From: a virus
Virus record (IMG/VR): IMGVR_UViG_3300021182_000253
DNA: 64,000 nt
Direction: 5' to 3' (one strand)
Of this stretch, positions 38,856 through 51,187 are shown in pieces. Below the pieces are notes generated by a model that saw only the letters and a program-made list of their open reading frames with translations, was not told the DNA's origin and searched no databases. Position 1 is the stretch's first letter; every line of letters starts with the position of its first letter. The position numbers were made by a program, and so were the translations under genes.

Positions 38856-38978
38856 CGCAGTCGAGGTGAAATGCTTGTTTTGTTGCAAATGCAGGAATTG
38901 AACCTACTATTTTTCTTTTCAAGAGAAATGCCTAACCATTTGGCATAATTGCGTGTATGCATCTCGGATTTGACTGCG
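38856..38978 (-). ncRNA. Element A: degenerate tRNA (core 38881-38953, anticodon loop CU-UGA-AA) nested in a closing stem module
   Basis: Minus strand CGCAGUCAAAUCCGAGAUGCAUACA-[tRNA fold, T-loop UUCAAUU, ends ACA]-AAACAAGCAUUUCACCUCGACUGCG. Confidence 0.75.
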
Positions 38979-39106: not shown

Positions 39107-39230
39107 CGCAGTCGAGGTGAAATGCTTGTTTTGGTACGTAATATAGGAATTGAACCTATTGATGTTTTCGTGATAGGAAAACGCTCAACCATTGAGCAAA
39201 TTGCGTGTAAGCATCTCGAATTTGACTGCG
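39107..39230 (-). tRNA. Element B: tRNA (core 39132-39206, anticodon AUC, encoded CCA) nested in the same closing module as element A
   Basis: Full cloverleaf ACGCAAU/AUUACGU, GCUC/GAGC, UUUUC-CUAUCAC-GAAAA, AUAGG-UUCAAUU-CCUAU, ACCA; flanks nearly identical to element A. Confidence 0.8.
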
Positions 39231-39754: not shown

Positions 39755-40270
39755 TCAACATAAAGTATTATCAGTGCAATTATTATCTAATGATGAGCAT
39801 GAAGTGAAATTTAACAATGCGCATTTGCCGTGCAATCTTTTAGATGCGTTATCATAAGCGAACGCAGCATCTATTTCGTTGTCAAAACTACCAAGATGGA
39901 TTTGCTGTCCTTCTGAGGTTATGTAAGCGAACCACTTTAAATCTCTTCTAAAAAAGCACACCCCTTTATATTTAGAGGATCCGGCCCACTTTCTTCTATT
40001 AATCTGATTTTCTGATCCTAGACATATTCTAAGATTATATCTTTGATTATTAGTTCCATTATGGTCTATGTGGTCAATATGCACTTTGGAATTTGTGATA
40101 CCAAAGATCACTCTGTGCATTCTTATAGTTTTCTTATTCTCTTTGCGTTGAGCATAATATACATCCCAGCGCTTATCATAATAAGCGTACCATTTATACT
40201 TATTTACCGATTCAAAATCATCGTCATCTACAAGCGCAACCTGTCCTTGTGTTAATTGAATTTCTTTCAT
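39755..40270 (-). CDS. HNH-AP2 homing endonuclease
   Basis: IDHIDHNGTNNQRYNLR; SSKYKGV...IHLGSF..EIDAAFAYD. Confidence 0.9.
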   Translation of the reverse strand: MKEIQLTQGQVALVDDDDFESVNKYKWYAYYDKRWDVYYAQRKENKKTIRMHRVIFGITNSKVHIDHIDHNGTNNQRYNLRICLGSENQINRRKWAGSSKYKGVCFFRRDLKWFAYITSEGQQIHLGSFDNEIDAAFAYDNASKRLHGKCALLNFTSCSSLDNNCTDNTLC

Positions 40271-41253
40271 TAAGCCACTAGAACTCTATTGAACGCAGAA
40301 ATATCAAGCTTAATCATTATCTCCGAACCAAATTGCACATCAGATTGATATTGAGAATATTCTTTACAGCCCCATTCATTATTCTTGGTTCTGTAAAGCG
40401 ATACAGATTTCCAAGTTCCGATGGACGGTTCGATTGCAGCAGCGGCCGCAATCACATCGTGCAAGGCTTTCCCGCCCGGGTGCTTCTTGAAGTAATGATT
40501 CATCCCAGCCTTAATGAAGTCAAGACCTGGGTGCGCTCCACTTGGGATCATCTCATTCGCTTCTGGGCTGTGGATAATTCCGTGGCAAACATTTTTTGGA
40601 ACGAAATTCCTAACTTCAATTGGAGGGCTAATATCTCTGGTTAGATACTCGGCCGCTCGCCAATCACCACCTAGATTGAAAGTTGGGCAGGTAAGCCGTC
40701 CATCGAACTTGGCCAATCGAAATTCTGGAGGCACGATATTGTCACCAGCAAATCCTCCTTGGCAAGTCCATTTTGAAAAGAATGATCCTTGTGATATCCT
40801 TCCGCCATCTGGAATGTTGGTCATGGCGTGAGCGGCATCTGCAATGTTTGTTAGAGCAGCTCCAGTCACCAAGTGAAATTCTCGTGGCTCGAAAGATATT
40901 CCGCGCGGTGGAATTATGACGTCATGAATTACTTCAGTTGCCGTTCCATCAGGATCTTGATCTGGGACTCTACCCAACCAATCATAATGGAATTGAGACA
41001 CTCTTGGTTTATCCCCTTTTGGAGTTCCAACCCCAACAGGAATCTTTTTACCAAGAAGATTCAATACATGTTTGACAAGGCCAACTTGATCTTTTCCGCC
41101 CGGATGAATGGTGACTGCCACTAGATTAGATCTCGGATGCGTTGCGAGCAATGCCATCGCAAATACATCATCAGGATCTGCAGTCTCCATATCGAAGAGG
41201 AAATTAGATATCATCTGTATTATCCAACTCGAACTCTTGGCACTTGCCATCAA
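40270..41253 (-). CDS. Inosine/uridine-preferring nucleoside hydrolase family protein
   Basis: FDMETADPDD, GAALTN, FNLGGD, ALHDVIAA. Confidence 0.8.
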   Translation of the reverse strand: MMASAKSSSWIIQMISNFLFDMETADPDDVFAMALLATHPRSNLVAVTIHPGGKDQVGLVKHVLNLLGKKIPVGVGTPKGDKPRVSQFHYDWLGRVPDQDPDGTATEVIHDVIIPPRGISFEPREFHLVTGAALTNIADAAHAMTNIPDGGRISQGSFFSKWTCQGGFAGDNIVPPEFRLAKFDGRLTCPTFNLGGDWRAAEYLTRDISPPIEVRNFVPKNVCHGIIHSPEANEMIPSGAHPGLDFIKAGMNHYFKKHPGGKALHDVIAAAAAIEPSIGTWKSVSLYRTKNNEWGCKEYSQYQSDVQFGSEIMIKLDISAFNRVLVA

Positions 41254-41410
41254 TGTTTCTCAAATGACATGGATGAGAAGTCACTTTGCTACCGCCATTT
41301 ACATAATCACGTTCTATTTTAACAGACTTAGCACAGCGTAATGACTTAACCCCTTCCTGGCTATCTACAATTACATATCCAATTAGTTTCATTTCTTCTT
41401 GAATAGGCAT
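41204..41410 (-). CDS. Small hypothetical protein
   Basis: 68 aa. Confidence 0.35.
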   Translation of the reverse strand: MPIQEEMKLIGYVIVDSQEGVKSLRCAKSVKIERDYVNGGSKVTSHPCHLRNIDGKCQEFELDNTDDI

Positions 41411-42262: not shown

Positions 42263-42796
42263 TCAAATGGTCAGTTTGACCACTTGGTTAGCTAATTCGA
42301 CAGATCCATTCAGGGAATCAAACTCTTCCTGAAGACTGTCCGCCAGCTCTGCTCGCTTTGCTTCTGGCAGCGCGCAGACGGTGGTTGATGTTTTGAGAAT
42401 ATACTTATCAGTATTCTCATCCCAAGATCTTTCTTGGTTGACGGCATTTTCAGTTGTCTGACATGGGAGAGCTCTCACCCAAGCAATTCTTCCCTTGAGT
42501 TCTTGCAGAACTCTAACTGCATGAGATAAGGAAATCTGGTTTCCTTTGTACTCAACCGTATTCTCCGCATTTGCAGCAGCCAATTTGCCTTGCAATGCCG
42601 CCAACTCAAAGCTTGCAACATCAGCTTTGGTCAACATCTCAGAGAAGGAGAATGCAGCTTGCTCACCTAACTTGTAAATCAGTGAGCTTTCGGCACGCTT
42701 GCGCGCTTCCGAGATCTGATTCTTTAACTTGCTTGCATATCGCAGCGCCTGTGAAATTGAAACTTCTGTCATAAATCCTCTATATACCTTTACCAC
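42263..42796 (-). CDS. Helical hypothetical protein
   Basis: ISQALRYASKLK...LSHAVRVLQEL...N pattern. Confidence 0.7.
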   Translation of the reverse strand: MVKVYRGFMTEVSISQALRYASKLKNQISEARKRAESSLIYKLGEQAAFSFSEMLTKADVASFELAALQGKLAAANAENTVEYKGNQISLSHAVRVLQELKGRIAWVRALPCQTTENAVNQERSWDENTDKYILKTSTTVCALPEAKRAELADSLQEEFDSLNGSVELANQVVKLTI

Positions 42797-43160
42797 ATTT
42801 TAGTCTGTGCTCGTAACAATGATTTGAGAATTCTACAGGAAGTGATTGGCACTGATCTCCGTTCTCAAATCTATGTATACAAGTAAATGTATGTTTCTTA
42901 ATCCAATCTTCCTTGGTAATTAGTTTGTTACTGATATTGCAAGGAACATCTTTAGCATCTGTTTCAACGCCACATTCACAACACTTAAACGTGACGTAAT
43001 ACTCTGAAGACCCATCATAAAAAGAACGTGATGTTTGATATAAATCATCTTGCTCTACCAAAAGAACAGCACCGCAACCACCATTGCCATTTCCGGCTCC
43101 GGTACACGTAAATTCTTTGGACCAACCATTTTGTGGACGCCCTGGAATTATAACCTTCAT
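42780..43160 (-). CDS. Zn-ribbon hypothetical protein
   Basis: CTG...GCG...CCECG...CIH...C. Confidence 0.6.
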   Translation of the reverse strand: MKVIIPGRPQNGWSKEFTCTGAGNGNGGCGAVLLVEQDDLYQTSRSFYDGSSEYYVTFKCCECGVETDAKDVPCNISNKLITKEDWIKKHTFTCIHRFENGDQCQSLPVEFSNHCYEHRLKCGKGI

Positions 43161-43182
43161 TGATTATCTTTGTCAAATAAAT

Positions 43183-43224: not shown

Positions 43225-43521
43225 TTACCCAGCGAGCCAACTGGAGAGAAGATGCATACCGAATGGAGTCTTCGGACGGAGAAAGATTCGGTTGTATGGA
43301 GTCTCTTCCGTAGATGCATATCGATCGACAATGAAGTCTGCGAAGTTTGCATTCGGATCTGCCGCGATGTTGGCAACTCCTCCTGTACGTACCGCCTCAG
43401 TTACCCAAGTGCGAACGTCAGTCTCTGTGGCATCGAAAGAAACGGGGTCGCGAAGATCTCCATTGTTTCCTGCCCAAGTAACGTTTACGATTGCTTCGTT
43501 AGCTGCAATTTGTGTATCCAT
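43225..43521 (-). CDS. Putative ubiquitin-like (beta-grasp) protein
   Basis: 98 aa with a beta-beta-alpha-beta-beta pattern ending RIFLRPKTPFG plus a 10-aa tail; strong AGGAGG RBS; adjacent to JAB. Confidence 0.55.
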   Translation of the reverse strand: MDTQIAANEAIVNVTWAGNNGDLRDPVSFDATETDVRTWVTEAVRTGGVANIAADPNANFADFIVDRYASTEETPYNRIFLRPKTPFGMHLLSSWLAG

Positions 43522-43553
43522 GTTATCCTCCTATGAGCGCAACCTTAGTTGCT

Positions 43554-43937
43554 TTAGTAATGAGAGAGTTCCCTTAACTTGTCCATCCAATCCCAATTAT
43601 TTGGGATTAGTTCAACTGTGACAATGTGTCTAGCATATGTTCCTTTATCATTATCAAAGAGACATAATACTTGTGAATCTGAGCTTAGAATGGGCCAGTT
43701 TAGGTGTTTCCCCAGTGCGGCCTCGATGGCCGCGAAAGTTGTTGTATCGGTGTATGATGGTCCGGGATAACCACTCCCTGGATGAGTATGAGCGAACCCG
43801 GTTACTTTATCACGATTTTCCCAAATTACATCCCAAAGATCGCGGCTATCTGGAAGTGCTCCGCCATTGCGATCGTGAGGCGTGTGCCAATGTATAACGG
43901 AATTATTTGGACCAAGCAATATTCCGGCTTCTTGCAT
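43554..43937 (-). CDS. JAB/MPN+ (JAMM) metallopeptidase
   Basis: E3...AHTHPGSGYPGPSYTD (HxH-x8-SxxD). Confidence 0.85.
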   Translation of the reverse strand: MQEAGILLGPNNSVIHWHTPHDRNGGALPDSRDLWDVIWENRDKVTGFAHTHPGSGYPGPSYTDTTTFAAIEAALGKHLNWPILSSDSQVLCLFDNDKGTYARHIVTVELIPNNWDWMDKLRELSHY

Positions 43938-43949
43938 GATTATTTTTTC

Positions 43950-44906
43950 CTAATCTACATGTCTGTAAACAACCAAGAGACGATCTCTTATAGCTTCTCT
44001 AATTACAGAAGGTAAGCTTTCAAGAGTGAAAAATGTGTCACCCTTTTCTCCGGTATGATGATCTGTAAGACAAATTCCAGAATCAATTATTCTTAGTGTT
44101 TTCTCATCACAAACACATTCAAATCTTCTTTGTTCTAGCCTGAATCTAACAACCATCTCGCCGCGTCTGGGTGCTCTTCGATGATCAAGATAATGAGCAC
44201 CACCTACTGCTAAAGCCGCTCTCGCAGCTTCACCGAAGTCAATCTGAGCAAGTTCTCGTCGCGTCTCGGCATTGCCAAGATTTGCGATTAGTGCTTGTCG
44301 TCTTTCTTCCCGAGCACGGCGCTCTTCCTCTTCGCGTCGAAGACGTTCAAGTTCTTGACGGCGGCGCTCGGCTTCAATTCTCTGCCACACTTCCATGCGG
44401 AAAGCCGCATCCAAAGCAGGCACTACACTTTTGATACCCCTACATTGATAGAAATCGGTAGGATTATCAAGAAAAATTTCCATTACTTCATCTTCTGGGC
44501 CAATAGGCATTTCCTGTTGCTTGAAAATTAGAGGGCCATCATCACAGGTACGCCCGGCAGAAATCCGCACAAATCGGTCAAGGCCATCTTCTAGCATAAA
44601 AACAGGCTCAGAATTGGCTGCAATCGTCTTTGGGTCAGGATCAACCCGAGCATCATCGAGTACCAAGCGGTCACCCACAAGGTACCCGGTAACTGTGTTG
44701 CTCAGGATATTGGGATTGGCCCCAACTGCCGAAATCTCGTAGCGTGTGGCTTTTCGCCCGGAAATAGTAAAGGAATACCAACCATGTTCGATTGGTAGTC
44801 TGTTCTCAATATTCCAGACTTGTCCGTTGAGGCAGAGAGATCTCCCGCCAGTCCAAGGCAAAGTAATGCTGTTGCCTTCAGTCTCTAGAAGATCTCTCCA
44901 TCCCAT
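43950..44906 (-). CDS. Hypothetical protein with a coiled coil and a putative E2-like C-terminal domain
   Basis: C-terminal IIDSGICLTD resembles the E2 G-x-ICL catalytic-Cys motif; operon context. Confidence 0.5.
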   Translation of the reverse strand: MGWRDLLETEGNSITLPWTGGRSLCLNGQVWNIENRLPIEHGWYSFTISGRKATRYEISAVGANPNILSNTVTGYLVGDRLVLDDARVDPDPKTIAANSEPVFMLEDGLDRFVRISAGRTCDDGPLIFKQQEMPIGPEDEVMEIFLDNPTDFYQCRGIKSVVPALDAAFRMEVWQRIEAERRRQELERLRREEEERRAREERRQALIANLGNAETRRELAQIDFGEAARAALAVGGAHYLDHRRAPRRGEMVVRFRLEQRRFECVCDEKTLRIIDSGICLTDHHTGEKGDTFFTLESLPSVIREAIRDRLLVVYRHVD

Positions 44907-44951
44907 TTGTTACCTACAGTCGAGGATTGTTATTCACTTAGATAAGATTGT

Positions 44952-45488
44952 ATGAAAGTAATTCCACTAACACAAGATCAAGTGGCGTTTGTTGATGATG
45001 ATATGTTTGAATATCTTAATCAGTGGAAATGGTACGCCGATAAGTGTGGAAACACTTATTATGCTTGTCGTAATGTATACAATTTTGGACCAGAAAGAAA
45101 ACATATAAGGATTAAAATGCACCATGCTGTATTTGGGCGTAACGTTCAAATAGACCATGCTGATGGAAACGGTTGCAACAATCAAAAAGAAAATCTAAGA
45201 GAGGCTTCTTCACTTGAGAACAGCAGAAATCGTAAAAAGAATACGGGCTGTTCTAGTAAATACAAGGGTGTTTATTGGAATAAATCACACCAAAAGTGGG
45301 AAGCCTCAATTAGGGTCGGTAAGCCTCTGCGGGATGGCCGTCACTGCAAAATGTATTTAGGTAATTTTGATAGTGAAATTGAAGCCGCAAAAGCTTATGA
45401 TCAACAAGCGATTAAGTTCGGTGAATTTGCCAAACTAAATTTCGCAATCAACTCGCCCACGCAGGTTTGTGTAGCAAATCAACCTTGA
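44952..45488 (+). mobile_element. HNH-AP2 homing endonuclease inserted antisense within the operon
   Basis: IDHADGNGCNNQKENLR; SSKYKGVYW...YLGNF..EIEAAKAYD. Confidence 0.88.
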
Positions 45489-46907
45489 TGATCTTATCCA
45501 CCAAGGTTTCTCGAACAAACGAGTATGCAGCTGCCGGAGCTTGTCGAACCGGAGTTGCCGCAATCAAGTTTCGAAGAGTACGCGGAGTTGCATAAACATC
45601 TTCAAATGTTCGATTGTCGATATTGAAGCAAGGAATATTAAGCTTTGCTGCCGTATCAACAACACAAGAACCACGGTCACCTGGCACTTTGATCAAACCA
45701 AAAGCCATTGGGCGAAGTCCGGAATTCCGAACATCATTCTCGAAGGTTGGGTGTTGACCTTCATCACCAACGAAGACAATGATTGAATCTTCGTCATCCT
45801 TTGGCTTGAATTTAGATATATGGCGTACACCACAGCCGTAATCTGTTCCACCGCTTGCACGGAAGCCCATGAAAGCATTGTCGATACCAGCCTTACTTGC
45901 AACTCGTAGAGGAACTTCACGAGCTTGTGTGTTGAATACACAAGCGTGAATATGATCAAGTGGAATTCCTTGAACGAATTTAGCCACATATTGTTTTGCC
46001 ATTTCTAAAGAAGCATTCATAGAACCAGAGATGTCTACGACGAAATAGATCCTGATTCCTTTAATTACTTCTTCAGCTGCTTTCTTGATGGCATTATCAG
46101 CACCATCTTGTAACTTCTCCTTGATTTCATTTGAAGTTACATTGCGTGCAATATTGGCTGAGCGCATATCTTCTGAATTCTTGATAGCGCGTTCCCAACG
46201 AGCCTTGATGTCATGAACATTAAGTAGTCCTAACTCTTCAAGAGTAGGAGTTCGAATGATCAAGTCCTTATCAGACATGAGATTCGCCTCAATGATTGAT
46301 GCCATGATTGCGCGGGTCAGACCAATATTCTTCGGCAACATGCCCTCAACTCGCTTGAGGCCAATGCGCTCGGATTGAATCCGCTCACAGATTTGCTCTT
46401 CGTTTAGGCCTTCCCAAGACTCTGCCTGAGTGACCGCAACTCCAATAGCCATCTCACGACGGCCATCTTCTGCTTGCTTCTGCTTCCAGCGCAGAAGCTC
46501 GAAGAACTTAGGAGATGTTGGCTTGTAGCCGACACGCTGTGCGAGGCTCATGACGGTGCTTCGGAAACCAGCCTTGATCAAACCCTCAAGCAACTTGGGG
46601 TTCTCTTCACGATACTGCAGCCACTTATCAACAGTCTTTGCCCAGCGCCCAATGAACGGCTTGCGATCGGAGCGAAGACTTGGCGATACATCCAAGCAGC
46701 AACTTCTGGGAAGATGCCAGCTTCACGATATTCACCCAAGACCGCGCCATTGGCGGTGACGATCTTCTTGTCTTCGCGTAGGATTCCGATTTGGGTCTTG
46801 GTGGTTTTCTTGCCAGTTTTCGCTAGCTTATAAACCAACTTCTGCCCGCCCACGATCTTGTGCGTAACAGGTTCCCATCGAACGCCAATTATGTATAAGG
46901 TGATCAC
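45448..46907 (-). pseudogene. vWA-domain protein split by a frameshift/deletion at about 46675
   Basis: Upstream ORF (46578-46907) ...AAWMYRQV joins out of frame to RSDRKPFIGRW... of the 415 aa ORF; C-terminal vWA MIDAS FVVDISGSM, GGTDY, VGDEG. Confidence 0.75.
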
Positions 46908-46951
46908 TATACGCCAGTACTGTCTGTAGAATTCTTTCTGCGGGCCCTAGA

Positions 46952-47359
46952 TTATCTTTGTCCATTTTTATTCTCTTTTCGCCTCTTGCGAGTTCTAATT
47001 CTGTGGCAATTTGCGCAAACTAATTCACATTTTTCAATCTCAGCCAATAATAAAGGCTCAGATCCCTTATAGATCATAGCCGATACCTTATCTATTTTTG
47101 TTTCTGGATTTATGTGGTCGAAATCCATAACCTCGACCGGAAATTTTTTGCCACAATCACAACAAGGACCAGTTTTTAAACTGTCCAATAATAAACGTAA
47201 CTTTTCATACTGACGTTTATTGCTTGCTATGATATCTGCTTTACGATCAGGATAAACATATGATCTAAAAATTGCATCACATGGTTTGCACCGTGGTGCA
47301 CGATATCCCAATGCTAAACCAACGAAAATTATCAGTTGGTTTTGTTTGTAGACAGTCAA
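46952..47359 (-). CDS. HNH endonuclease
   Basis: PCCDCG...MDFDH...KCELVCANCHRIRT. Confidence 0.88.
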   Translation of the reverse strand: MTVYKQNQLIIFVGLALGYRAPRCKPCDAIFRSYVYPDRKADIIASNKRQYEKLRLLLDSLKTGPCCDCGKKFPVEVMDFDHINPETKIDKVSAMIYKGSEPLLLAEIEKCELVCANCHRIRTRKRRKENKNGQR

Positions 47360-49891: not shown

Positions 49892-51187
49892 TCACTTACG
49901 TCCATGGTTTTCCTCACTGATACCCTTGACACATAGAACTTGCTTGAGAGTATGTACTATTGAAACTAAGTCTGCTTGTGCAGCCATGACATCTTCTATT
50001 GGCTTGTACGCTCCTGGTGTTTCATCAATTACATCAGATTCAATACGGCATTCTACGCCTTGAACTGCTGCTCGATGGTCCTTCAAACTGAAGGTGTTGC
50101 GCGCTTCGGTGCGGCTCATCTTTCGCCCAGCACCATGAGATGCTGAACAAAAGCTTTCTCTATTGCCAAGGCCGCTCACAATAAAGCTCTTGTCTCCCAT
50201 AGATCCTGGGATAATTCCAAGTTCGCCCTTACGAGCGCTGATGGCTCCTTTGCGAGTAACCCATACTTTCTTGCCAAAATGGAATTCATTTTGGACATAG
50301 TTGTGATGACAGTTGACCTGAAGATCAGTTGCCTCGAACTTTGGAATGCCTTTGCAGCCCTTCAAAGTCTTGAGTACAGTACGCATCATCAAGTCACGAT
50401 TCATAGCCGCAAATTGCTGAGCCCATTTAACTGACTCAATAAAGTCATCAAAATACAAACTATCCTCTGGTAAAAACGAAAGGTAGATATCTGGCAAGCT
50501 ATCATTAAAGAACCACTTGATAGCCTCGCGCTTTGCAAGGTCGATGAAGTAAGATCCAATACGATTACCAACACCACGGCTTCCCGAATGTAGCATTACC
50601 CATACGCTATCATCTTCATCCAAACAAAGTTCGATGAAATTATTTCCAGTTCCAAGGGTTCCTAATTGGTTCTCTGGTGGCTGACGCGTTTTCAGTCTTG
50701 CATGCTTGGCAACAATCTTCTGATAGCCTGGCTCTAATTCAGCCCAGGCAATTTCTACGATTGAAGGTACTTCCCCGCGCCATGAGCCAATGTCATGTAC
50801 GCCGCCATTATCAGATCGTCCATTTGGAACAGCTGCTTCAATTTCAGAACGGATTGCAGCCAAGTCTTTCGGCAAGTGAGATCTCTTTAATGTGGTTTGA
50901 ACACAGGCCATTCCACATCCTATGTCAACTCCAACAGCCGCTGGAATGATCGCAGTGGTCGTTGGGATAACAGAGCCGATAGTAGCCCCTTCGCCAACGT
51001 GCACGTCAGGCATTGCCGCTACATGGCGGAATATGAATGGCATATTGGCAACGTTGAAGAGTTGCTTCTGCGCGCCTTCTTCTACAGTAACCCCAACAGT
51101 CCAGGACTTGATTGGAAATTTAGCTCCAGTAATTAAGTTAATGTTATCATGACGATAAACATTCATGTTTGAGTAATCGTTTGCCAT
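49892..51187 (-). CDS. rtcB: RNA 3'-phosphate/5'-OH ligase RtcB
   Basis: MPDVH, VGVDIGCG, GTLGTGNNFIE, LHSGSRG, HHNY, SASHGAGR, DETPGAYK. Confidence 0.96.
   Translation of the reverse strand: MANDYSNMNVYRHDNINLITGAKFPIKSWTVGVTVEEGAQKQLFNVANMPFIFRHVAAMPDVHVGEGATIGSVIPTTTAIIPAAVGVDIGCGMACVQTTLKRSHLPKDLAAIRSEIEAAVPNGRSDNGGVHDIGSWRGEVPSIVEIAWAELEPGYQKIVAKHARLKTRQPPENQLGTLGTGNNFIELCLDEDDSVWVMLHSGSRGVGNRIGSYFIDLAKREAIKWFFNDSLPDIYLSFLPEDSLYFDDFIESVKWAQQFAAMNRDLMMRTVLKTLKGCKGIPKFEATDLQVNCHHNYVQNEFHFGKKVWVTRKGAISARKGELGIIPGSMGDKSFIVSGLGNRESFCSASHGAGRKMSRTEARNTFSLKDHRAAVQGVECRIESDVIDETPGAYKPIEDVMAAQADLVSIVHTLKQVLCVKGISEENHGRK

Follow-up and report, generated by a model that had tools for sequence, protein, structure and literature searches.

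Can a phage run a ubiquitin-like protein (Ubl) conjugation system that has no E1 activating enzyme of its own? The question is raised by a 64-kb stretch of viral DNA from the IMG/VR record IMGVR_UViG_3300021182_000253 (hereafter the window), which is a fragment of a larger genome and to which all coordinates refer. A preliminary description of positions 43225-46907 proposed an E1-less conjugation operon formed by a vWA protein, an E2-like protein of 318 residues (p318), a JAMM/JAB peptidase and a 98-residue Ubl. Our analysis indicates that the region probably arose by partial decay of a conserved cassette, present in huge and jumbo phages and in Myxococcota chromosomes, that comprises five genes, the fifth encoding an E1. 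What is specific to the window is the loss of this E1 and the disruption of the vWA gene.

The cassette includes a ThiF-type E1 that is missing from the window

Related loci, numbered here with the prefix L, were drawn from IMG/VR, metagenome contigs and GTDB genomes, and the five proteins were mapped on each. The gene order vWA, p318, (JAB), Ubl, ThiF recurred in every sufficiently long related locus. It was conserved from loci whose p318 is 89% (L027) or 86% (L028) identical to that of the window down to one with 34% identity (L009); across L005-L026 the p318 identity ranged from 34 to 84%. Polyangiaceae/Myxococcota metagenome-assembled genomes (MAGs) also carry the cassette in this order, on contigs of 544 kb and 1.03 Mb. 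All 18 related loci that reach past the Ubl gene, in huge phages and in Myxococcota chromosomes, had a ThiF-type E1. At 190-200 aa this protein is small; it contains GxGxxG and, within A-T-C-E-D-G, a conserved Cys, and it matches the NCBIfam ThiF/MoeB models (~1e-19) and the PADLOC E1-E2 models (3e-16). The PRTRC system was considered and rejected: only the E1 matched a model of that set (PRTRC_ThiF, 7e-11), more weakly than it matched ThiF/MoeB, and the other PRTRC models were unmatched.

These genes might be neighbors by shared phage ancestry only, with no joint function. The arrangement in Virus Rctr197k (197 kb), the closest GenBank record to the window, speaks for this: its vWA/p318 pair lies about 3 kb, or seven genes, from JAB/Ubl/ThiF. 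However, the set stays together over the whole p318 identity range of L005-L026, in phages as well as in bacterial chromosomes, and the stop and start codons of its genes often overlap, as they do in L009. We regard ancestry without joint function as highly improbable.

The window departs from this pattern. A tblastn search found no ThiF homologue in its 64 kb, and it is the only locus with enough flanking sequence that lacks one. In a DNA alignment, 186 bp of the window (41205-41391, minus strand) replace 1836 bp of L005 that hold three genes including ThiF, and in L005, L027, and L028 ThiF lies between the same flanking genes. The statement that there is no E1 is thus true of the window. The proposal of an E1-less system was not borne out, since the gene-neighborhood survey shows that the cassette includes a minimal ThiF-type E1, which has been lost here.

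The vWA gene is broken by two deletions

In the relatives, the vWA gene is one intact open reading frame (ORF) of 614-709 aa. In the window, its counterpart (45448-46965, minus strand, with an ATG at 46965) is disrupted, either a pseudogene or a truncated gene, and is read as two ORFs at 46578-46907 and 45448-46695. Compared with L005, L027, and L028, it has a 38-nt deletion at ~46888/9 and a ~304-nt deletion at ~46672-46676. Either deletion alone is a frameshift; in combination they return the reading to its original frame, but with three stop codons in the intervening stretch. The gene is left with a stub at the N terminus, a middle piece that is out of frame and, at the C terminus, an ORF of 415 codons (45448-46695) that keeps the vWA domain with its metal ion-dependent adhesion site (MIDAS). 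The domain matches Pfam VWA_2 (3e-8), and residues D425, S427, and S429 of the MIDAS motif (DxSxS) are invariant. The vWA domain of the preliminary description is therefore present, but it does not belong to one intact gene.

The defects recur in other peat assemblies

The 6-kb stretch in question is carried by four peat-metagenome runs (X1-X4) from three studies, whose samples come from similar habitats and may include the window's own source. Contigs of X3 and X4 span the two vWA deletions and agree with the window at both, and a contig of X4 spans the ThiF-less junction. When the runs were aligned to L005, the main contigs of X1, X2, and X4 shared a skip of 1838 nt. Run X1 also contains contigs of 72-118 kb at the same depth. 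The vWA deletions and the ThiF loss are not artefacts of one assembly.

The assembly graph of X3 branches at 41348, in the ThiF-less junction (41319-41377), where an alternative contig of 1349 nt both starts and ends; its depth is ~10, against ~12.5 for the direct path. This contig had no placement on the ThiF region of L005 at a likeness of at least 80%. The branch suggests an insertion/deletion polymorphism in the natural population.

We also counted lineage-specific substitutions in the three surviving genes of the window and in those of sister loci. The counts were 12 against 6, 9, and 16 for p318, 9 against 9, 6, and 3 for JAB, and 6 against 3, 1, and 2 for the Ubl. The search for decay of p318, JAB, and Ubl gave no clear excess of private substitutions over the sister loci. 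This bears on an explanation closer to the preliminary description, namely a functional phage Ubl/E2/JAB system without its own E1 that borrows a host E1, perhaps that of a homologous cassette in the host, to tag proteins of the host or of rival phages. The three genes are intact and keep their invariant residues; homologous cassettes with an E1 exist in chromosomes of Myxococcota, which are possible hosts, and the ThiF-less form is dominant in several samples. On the other side, every related locus that reaches past the Ubl gene keeps an adjacent E1, and the intact vWA gene has been lost as well, which fits decay better than redesign. We consider such a functional, E1-borrowing tagging system unlikely.

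A Ubl with a variable tail and a minimal JAMM peptidase

The Ubl ORF (43225-43521, minus strand) encodes 98 aa. Its structural model (predicted local distance difference test, pLDDT, 88) is a beta-grasp fold of b-b-a-b-b order whose structural neighbors are ubiquitin-like domains, as had been predicted from the sequence. The sequence pattern at the C terminus is the stronger argument for a Ubl. The residues L-R-P-K-T-P-F-G are nearly invariant in 77 homologues, and G88 is invariant (57 sequences). The tail beyond PFG was compared in 66 homologues: it is absent from 10 of them, a single residue long in 32, two or three residues long in 10 and 7-56 residues long in 14, so that 52 of the 66 end within three residues of the Gly, and the window copy has a tail of 10 residues. 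A conserved Gly followed by a variable tail is typical of the precursors of Ubls or sulfur carriers. In the window, the mature part would comprise residues 1-88, ending in RPKTPFG (43258-43521, minus strand), and the 10 codons past Gly88 (43228-43257, minus strand), as the tail lengths of the homologues indicate, form the presumed substrate of the JAB protein. There was no Pfam match to ThiS, MoaD, ubiquitin, or Urm1 among 57 members, and none in a PDB profile search; the protein therefore belongs to a new sequence family. The fold, the Gly with its variable tails and the conserved neighborhood make the identification as a Ubl convincing.

The JAMM/JAB metallopeptidase (43554-43937, minus strand) is a minimal protein of 127 aa. 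All 11 family members compared share its JAMM residues E3, H50-x-H52, S61, and D64, and nine of the 11 match Prok-JAB (best 4.6e-6), the sole Pfam family matched. The copy in the window matches it at 9e-4 (19.6 bits), under the curated cut-off of 25 bits, and a PDB profile search with the family gave no match. The preliminary reading of this gene as a JAMM peptidase with an intact metal motif was correct, with all catalytic residues kept.

The presence of the peptidase appears to go with the tail of the Ubl. Six cassettes, in MAGs of Polyangiaceae/Myxococcales, consist of vWA, p318, Ubl, and ThiF only (L012, L013, L015, L016, L017, and L022), and all six encode a Ubl that ends exactly at the Gly. 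Among the cassettes with JAB, 11 of 16 have a tailed Ubl (hypergeometric p ~0.006). Because the six JAB-less cassettes are related to one another, the association is only suggestive.

The best structural neighbor of the Ubl model was the UBL domain of NLE1 in complex with the MIDAS domain of MDN1. Recognition between a MIDAS and a UBL therefore has a precedent, and by analogy with NLE1-MDN1 the MIDAS of the vWA protein may recognize the Ubl.

p318 has an invariant cysteine but no recognizable E2 fold

The third surviving gene (43950-44906, minus strand) encodes p318, whose homologues form more than 1400 sequence clusters in metagenomes, on contigs of up to 659 kb. In the AlphaFold2 model (pLDDT 93), tandem OB-like beta barrels (residues 12-131) are followed by a charged helix of 45 residues (163-208) and an alpha/beta domain (213-318). 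The C-terminal domain is built of two helices, a four-strand meander, a loop with G277-I-C279-L and a final helix. This loop had been likened to the catalytic site of an E2. All 109 diverse homologues compared have both G277 and C279, and C264 is almost as well conserved.

The fold check of the C-terminal domain did not confirm the E2 assignment. No UBC/E2 fold matched p318 in six fold searches, which included Foldseek PDB, VIA-wide PDB, AFDB clusters, AFDB Swiss-Prot, and the ESM Atlas. A Pfam scan of the 109 members, a PDB profile search and the ESM Atlas features returned no E2 or other relevant family, and neither a match to the UQ_con or Prok-E2 profiles nor an HPN-type motif before the Cys was found in the 109 members and their alignment. 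The C-terminal domain was matched better by PepSY/YpmB and by the N-terminal domain of DsbC. The N-terminal half weakly resembles the RNA-binding OB/CSD pairs of RNase II/R (E 0.06-0.2). Given these fold searches, the E2 call is unproven: the G-I-C-L motif of the preliminary description was confirmed, and a UBC domain was found neither by fold nor by profile. The invariance of C279 is compatible with an E2 but is not specific to one.

A zinc site of the form C264-x-C266...C279...H283 was apparent among close homologues. In the diverse set, C266 was kept in 61 of 109 sequences and H283 in 50 of 109, and this lack of conservation rules the site out.

The predicted complex of p318 with the mature Ubl scored an ipSAE of 0.46 (0.46, 0.48, and 0.37 in the separate runs), where the best of three controls scored 0.00; the mark set for this score is reached by 58 of 80 solved complexes and by two of 110 mismatched pairs, and values of 0.60 or under include only seven of the 80 solved complexes together with both mismatched pairs. 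The contacts agreed between runs to at least 91%, the partner pLDDT was at least 84, and the tool rated the support as weak.

One explanation of these data is that p318 is a true but highly divergent E2 of the UBC superfamily, and that the intact cassette is a complete E1-E2-Ubl-JAB pathway of the Bil/CBASS kind. It would account for the invariant Cys279 and Gly277, and for a domain order of helix, four-strand meander, Cys loop, and helix that is reminiscent of UBC; the predicted binding of the Ubl is in line with it, and the cassette holds no other E2 candidate. However, the folds that match better are not those of an E2, profile matches and an HPN-like motif are absent, and the Cys stands 3-4 residues past the last strand and not on a long UBC loop. 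A divergent E2 in a complete pathway is therefore unlikely. That p318 serves as an E2-like acceptor is a live hypothesis, if a doubtful one.

RNA-related neighbors of the cassette

Three features led us to suspect that the vWA protein is a relative of Ro60, which combines TROVE and vWA domains: the architecture of the protein, an RtcB gene that lies 3 kb upstream, and arrays of tRNA genes beside the cassette in Rctr197k and L011. The Pfam scan of the cassette vWA protein gave vWA models only and no TROVE. When the TROVE model was run on three genomes, it found a separate canonical Ro60 in one Myxococcota genome and not the cassette vWA gene. The comparison with canonical Ro60 by hhalign gave a probability of 0.4%, and only vWA matches were returned by a PDB profile search. 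The vWA protein is possibly Ro60-like, the sole lead being language-model features of the ESM Atlas, in which 58 of the 100 nearest clusters are TROVE families with scores of ~0.9, below the tool's comfortable range.

The RtcB RNA ligase gene (49892-51187, minus strand; PHROG tRNA splicing ligase, 8e-139) is located some 3 kb upstream of the vWA gene, as it is in L027 and L028. Bacterial loci are known that combine rsr, Y RNA, and rtcB, and the position of RtcB near the cassette recalls them. Rfam detected no Y RNA in the window, and only two tRNAs were found near the cassette.

The first of these tRNAs (38882-38953, minus strand) lies downstream of the cassette and has the anticodon TGA ('Ser'). 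Such a tRNA was also present downstream of the cassette in seven of the 13 related loci scanned, among them L005:16936-17007, L027:14647-14719, L028:13915-13987, L007:11904-11978, L009:10780-10854, and L013:9912-9997. A real tRNA-Ser has a long variable arm. The TGA tRNAs of the phage loci are only 72-75 nt long and lack it, whereas the Polyangiaceae locus L013 has a normal tRNA-Ser of 86 nt followed by two more. One possibility is that the short TGA tRNA serves the cassette as a tRNA-like partner. The second is a tRNA-Asp with the unusual anticodon ATC (39132-39206, minus strand), called by ARAGORN and scoring 51.7 bits with the Rfam tRNA model; the same call was made in L005.

Protein tagging has a serious competitor in a sulfur-carrier role of the type known from ThiS/MoaD, QbsE/QbsD/QbsC, CysO/Mec+ and TtuB/TtuC. 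According to it, the Ubl would mainly carry sulfur as a C-terminal thiocarboxylate for the thiolation of RNA or small molecules, and Cys279 of p318 would relay the sulfur. The E1 scores best with ThiF/MoeB models, and many loci have tRNA genes and RtcB close to the cassette. QbsE/QbsD and CysO/Mec+ provide a precedent for pairing a JAMM peptidase with a sulfur carrier that has a tail, and the weak likeness of the N-terminal half of p318 to RNase II/R points in the same direction. The cassette, however, contains no rhodanese, cysteine desulfurase, or PP-loop thiolase, and the Ubl ends in F-G and not in the usual G-G, with no sequence match to ThiS, MoaD, or Urm1. As an account of the main function of the Ubl, sulfur transfer seems to us unlikely. 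The occurrence in Myxococcota chromosomes and the proximity of RtcB and tRNA genes suggest a link to RNA or translation biology no less than one to the tagging of host proteins, to anti-defence or to conflict between phages, the roles proposed in the preliminary description.

Other features of the locus

The window comes from a large phage of environmental origin, with almost all of its genes in one orientation; PHROG families, the RtcB gene and an NAD-dependent DNA ligase are present. The contigs closest to it are two of 85 and 436 kb in IMG/VR. The cassette genes are minus-strand ORFs, and they end, as noted in the preliminary description, at an intrinsic terminator-like hairpin of 16 bp with a T-run (43217-43183, minus strand) directly 3' of the Ubl stop codon.

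An AP2-HNH homing endonuclease gene on the plus strand (44952-45488; Pfam AP2 7e-10, HNH_3 5e-6; PHROG HNH endonuclease 1e-31) separates the vWA gene from the p318 gene. The same insertion is present in L028 and absent from L005 and L027, which indicates that the element is mobile within the phage group. It is one of three HNH-type homing endonuclease genes around the cassette, the others being at 39755-40270 and 46952-47359 (both minus strand). Two of the three are AP2-HNH genes, and both of these have counterparts at matching places in L028.

Directly past the terminator, the sequence TTGACA-18 nt-TATAAT (43147-43176, minus strand) matches the sigma-70 consensus at 12 of 12 positions. It overlaps the listed ATG of the ORF at 42780-43160, and the true start of this ORF is therefore probably further downstream. 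The gene at 42263-42796 (minus strand) encodes a DIP1984-family/DUF6847-like protein (NCBIfam 9e-6, below cut-off). A gene of this kind also occurs near the cassette in L005 (11905-12411) and L006 (15101-15613, on the opposite strand).

A possible pathway and its state in the window

The data show the gene content, folds, motifs and conservation of the cassette and its two defects in the window; every step of the following pathway is inferred. The JAB protein would trim the variable tail of the Ubl precursor and so expose Gly88. The E1 would adenylate Gly88, and the conserved Cys of its A-T-C-E-D-G motif could take over the Ubl as a thioester. The activated Ubl would pass to a target, maybe via Cys279 of p318. 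The receptor or target would be the vWA protein, whose gene always accompanies the rest. As the E1 is absent from the locus, the local module cannot activate its own Ubl; it may be a recent remnant, or it may be served by an E1 in trans.

Several points weigh against a partly decayed copy of this cassette. The surviving trio may still be in use, as it shows no clear excess of substitutions, and an E1 could lie elsewhere in the genome, of which only 64 kb are visible. The cassette has no canonical E2, and the role of p318 is only putative. The view of the vWA protein as Ro60-like failed every sequence test. Even so, we judge a decayed copy to be likely. The observation in the preliminary description is partly confirmed and its interpretation partly supported: the Ubl and the peptidase stand, whereas the E1-less system, and the E2 by fold or profile, do not.

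A more far-reaching proposal, which we think quite unlikely, joins these elements into one pathway of Ubl conjugation, shared by huge phages and myxobacteria. In it, a protein with OB and Cys domains would act as the E2 without being of the UBC type, and a Ro60-like vWA/MIDAS particle that acts on tRNA-like RNAs would either have the Ubl attached to it or read it. Phages without an E1 would keep the Ubl, JAB, and the Cys protein and use an E1 of the host.

Comparison with known systems

A literature search found no published description of this cassette. Among the closest known systems are the archaeal SAMP1-3/UbaA/HvJAMM1 and the TtuB/TtuC of Thermus, which do not depend on an E2. Like the cassette, they combine a JAMM peptidase with one ThiF/MoeB-type E1 and a small protein of beta-grasp fold that ends in Gly, and they lack a canonical E2 or E3. 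The cassette differs from them in the Ubl, which is of a new family ending in F-G and without a match to ThiS, MoaD, or Urm1, in the small size of its E1, in the additional vWA/MIDAS and OB/Cys partners and in its carriers, which are huge phages and Myxococcota.

The anti-phage systems Bil (BilABCD) and CBASS (Cap2/Cap3) share with the cassette an operon of Ubl, E1, and JAB, and the Cys protein of the cassette stands at the position expected of an E2. In contrast, the cassette has no demonstrable UBC-fold E2, its minimal E1 is not fused to an E2, and it is carried by the phages themselves. With the PADLOC models, JAB matched only at 0.03, beside the E1 match given above, and the Ubl, p318, and the vWA protein were unmatched.

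QbsE/QbsD/QbsC, of thioquinolobactin synthesis, and CysO/Mec+/MoeZ have in common with the cassette a small carrier, a C-terminal extension removed by a JAMM peptidase and activation by a ThiF/MoeB-type protein. The cassette lacks a rhodanese domain or sulfur-acceptor enzyme, its carrier ends in F-G instead of G-G, and its other partner genes are different.

A vWA protein is coupled to JAB, E1, and Ubl also in the vWA-MoxR 'FtsH ternary' conflict systems, which have a full set for Ubl conjugation with MoxR, FtsH, a RING-type E3, and a Ubl-E2 fusion (Kaur et al., 2020; PMC7159879). These last four components are all absent from the cassette. Ro60/Rsr and the vWA protein of the cassette both begin with a large helical region and continue with a vWA domain in which the DxSxS MIDAS is intact, and both have RtcB and tRNA genes nearby. 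The vWA protein, however, is unmatched by TROVE, by hhalign and in the PDB profile search, and the window has no Y RNA.

Bacterial modules of Ubl, E1, and JAB have so far been known for sulfur transfer or anti-phage defence. The cassette is a distinct version, carried by phages and Myxococcota, with a new Ubl family, a minimal E1, and two obligatory partners. It suggests a protein-tagging or sulfur-relay function that is linked to an unstudied vWA particle. The window itself is a natural experiment, in which the E1 and the vWA protein have been lost and the other three proteins kept, and this lineage can reveal how the parts of the cassette depend on one another.

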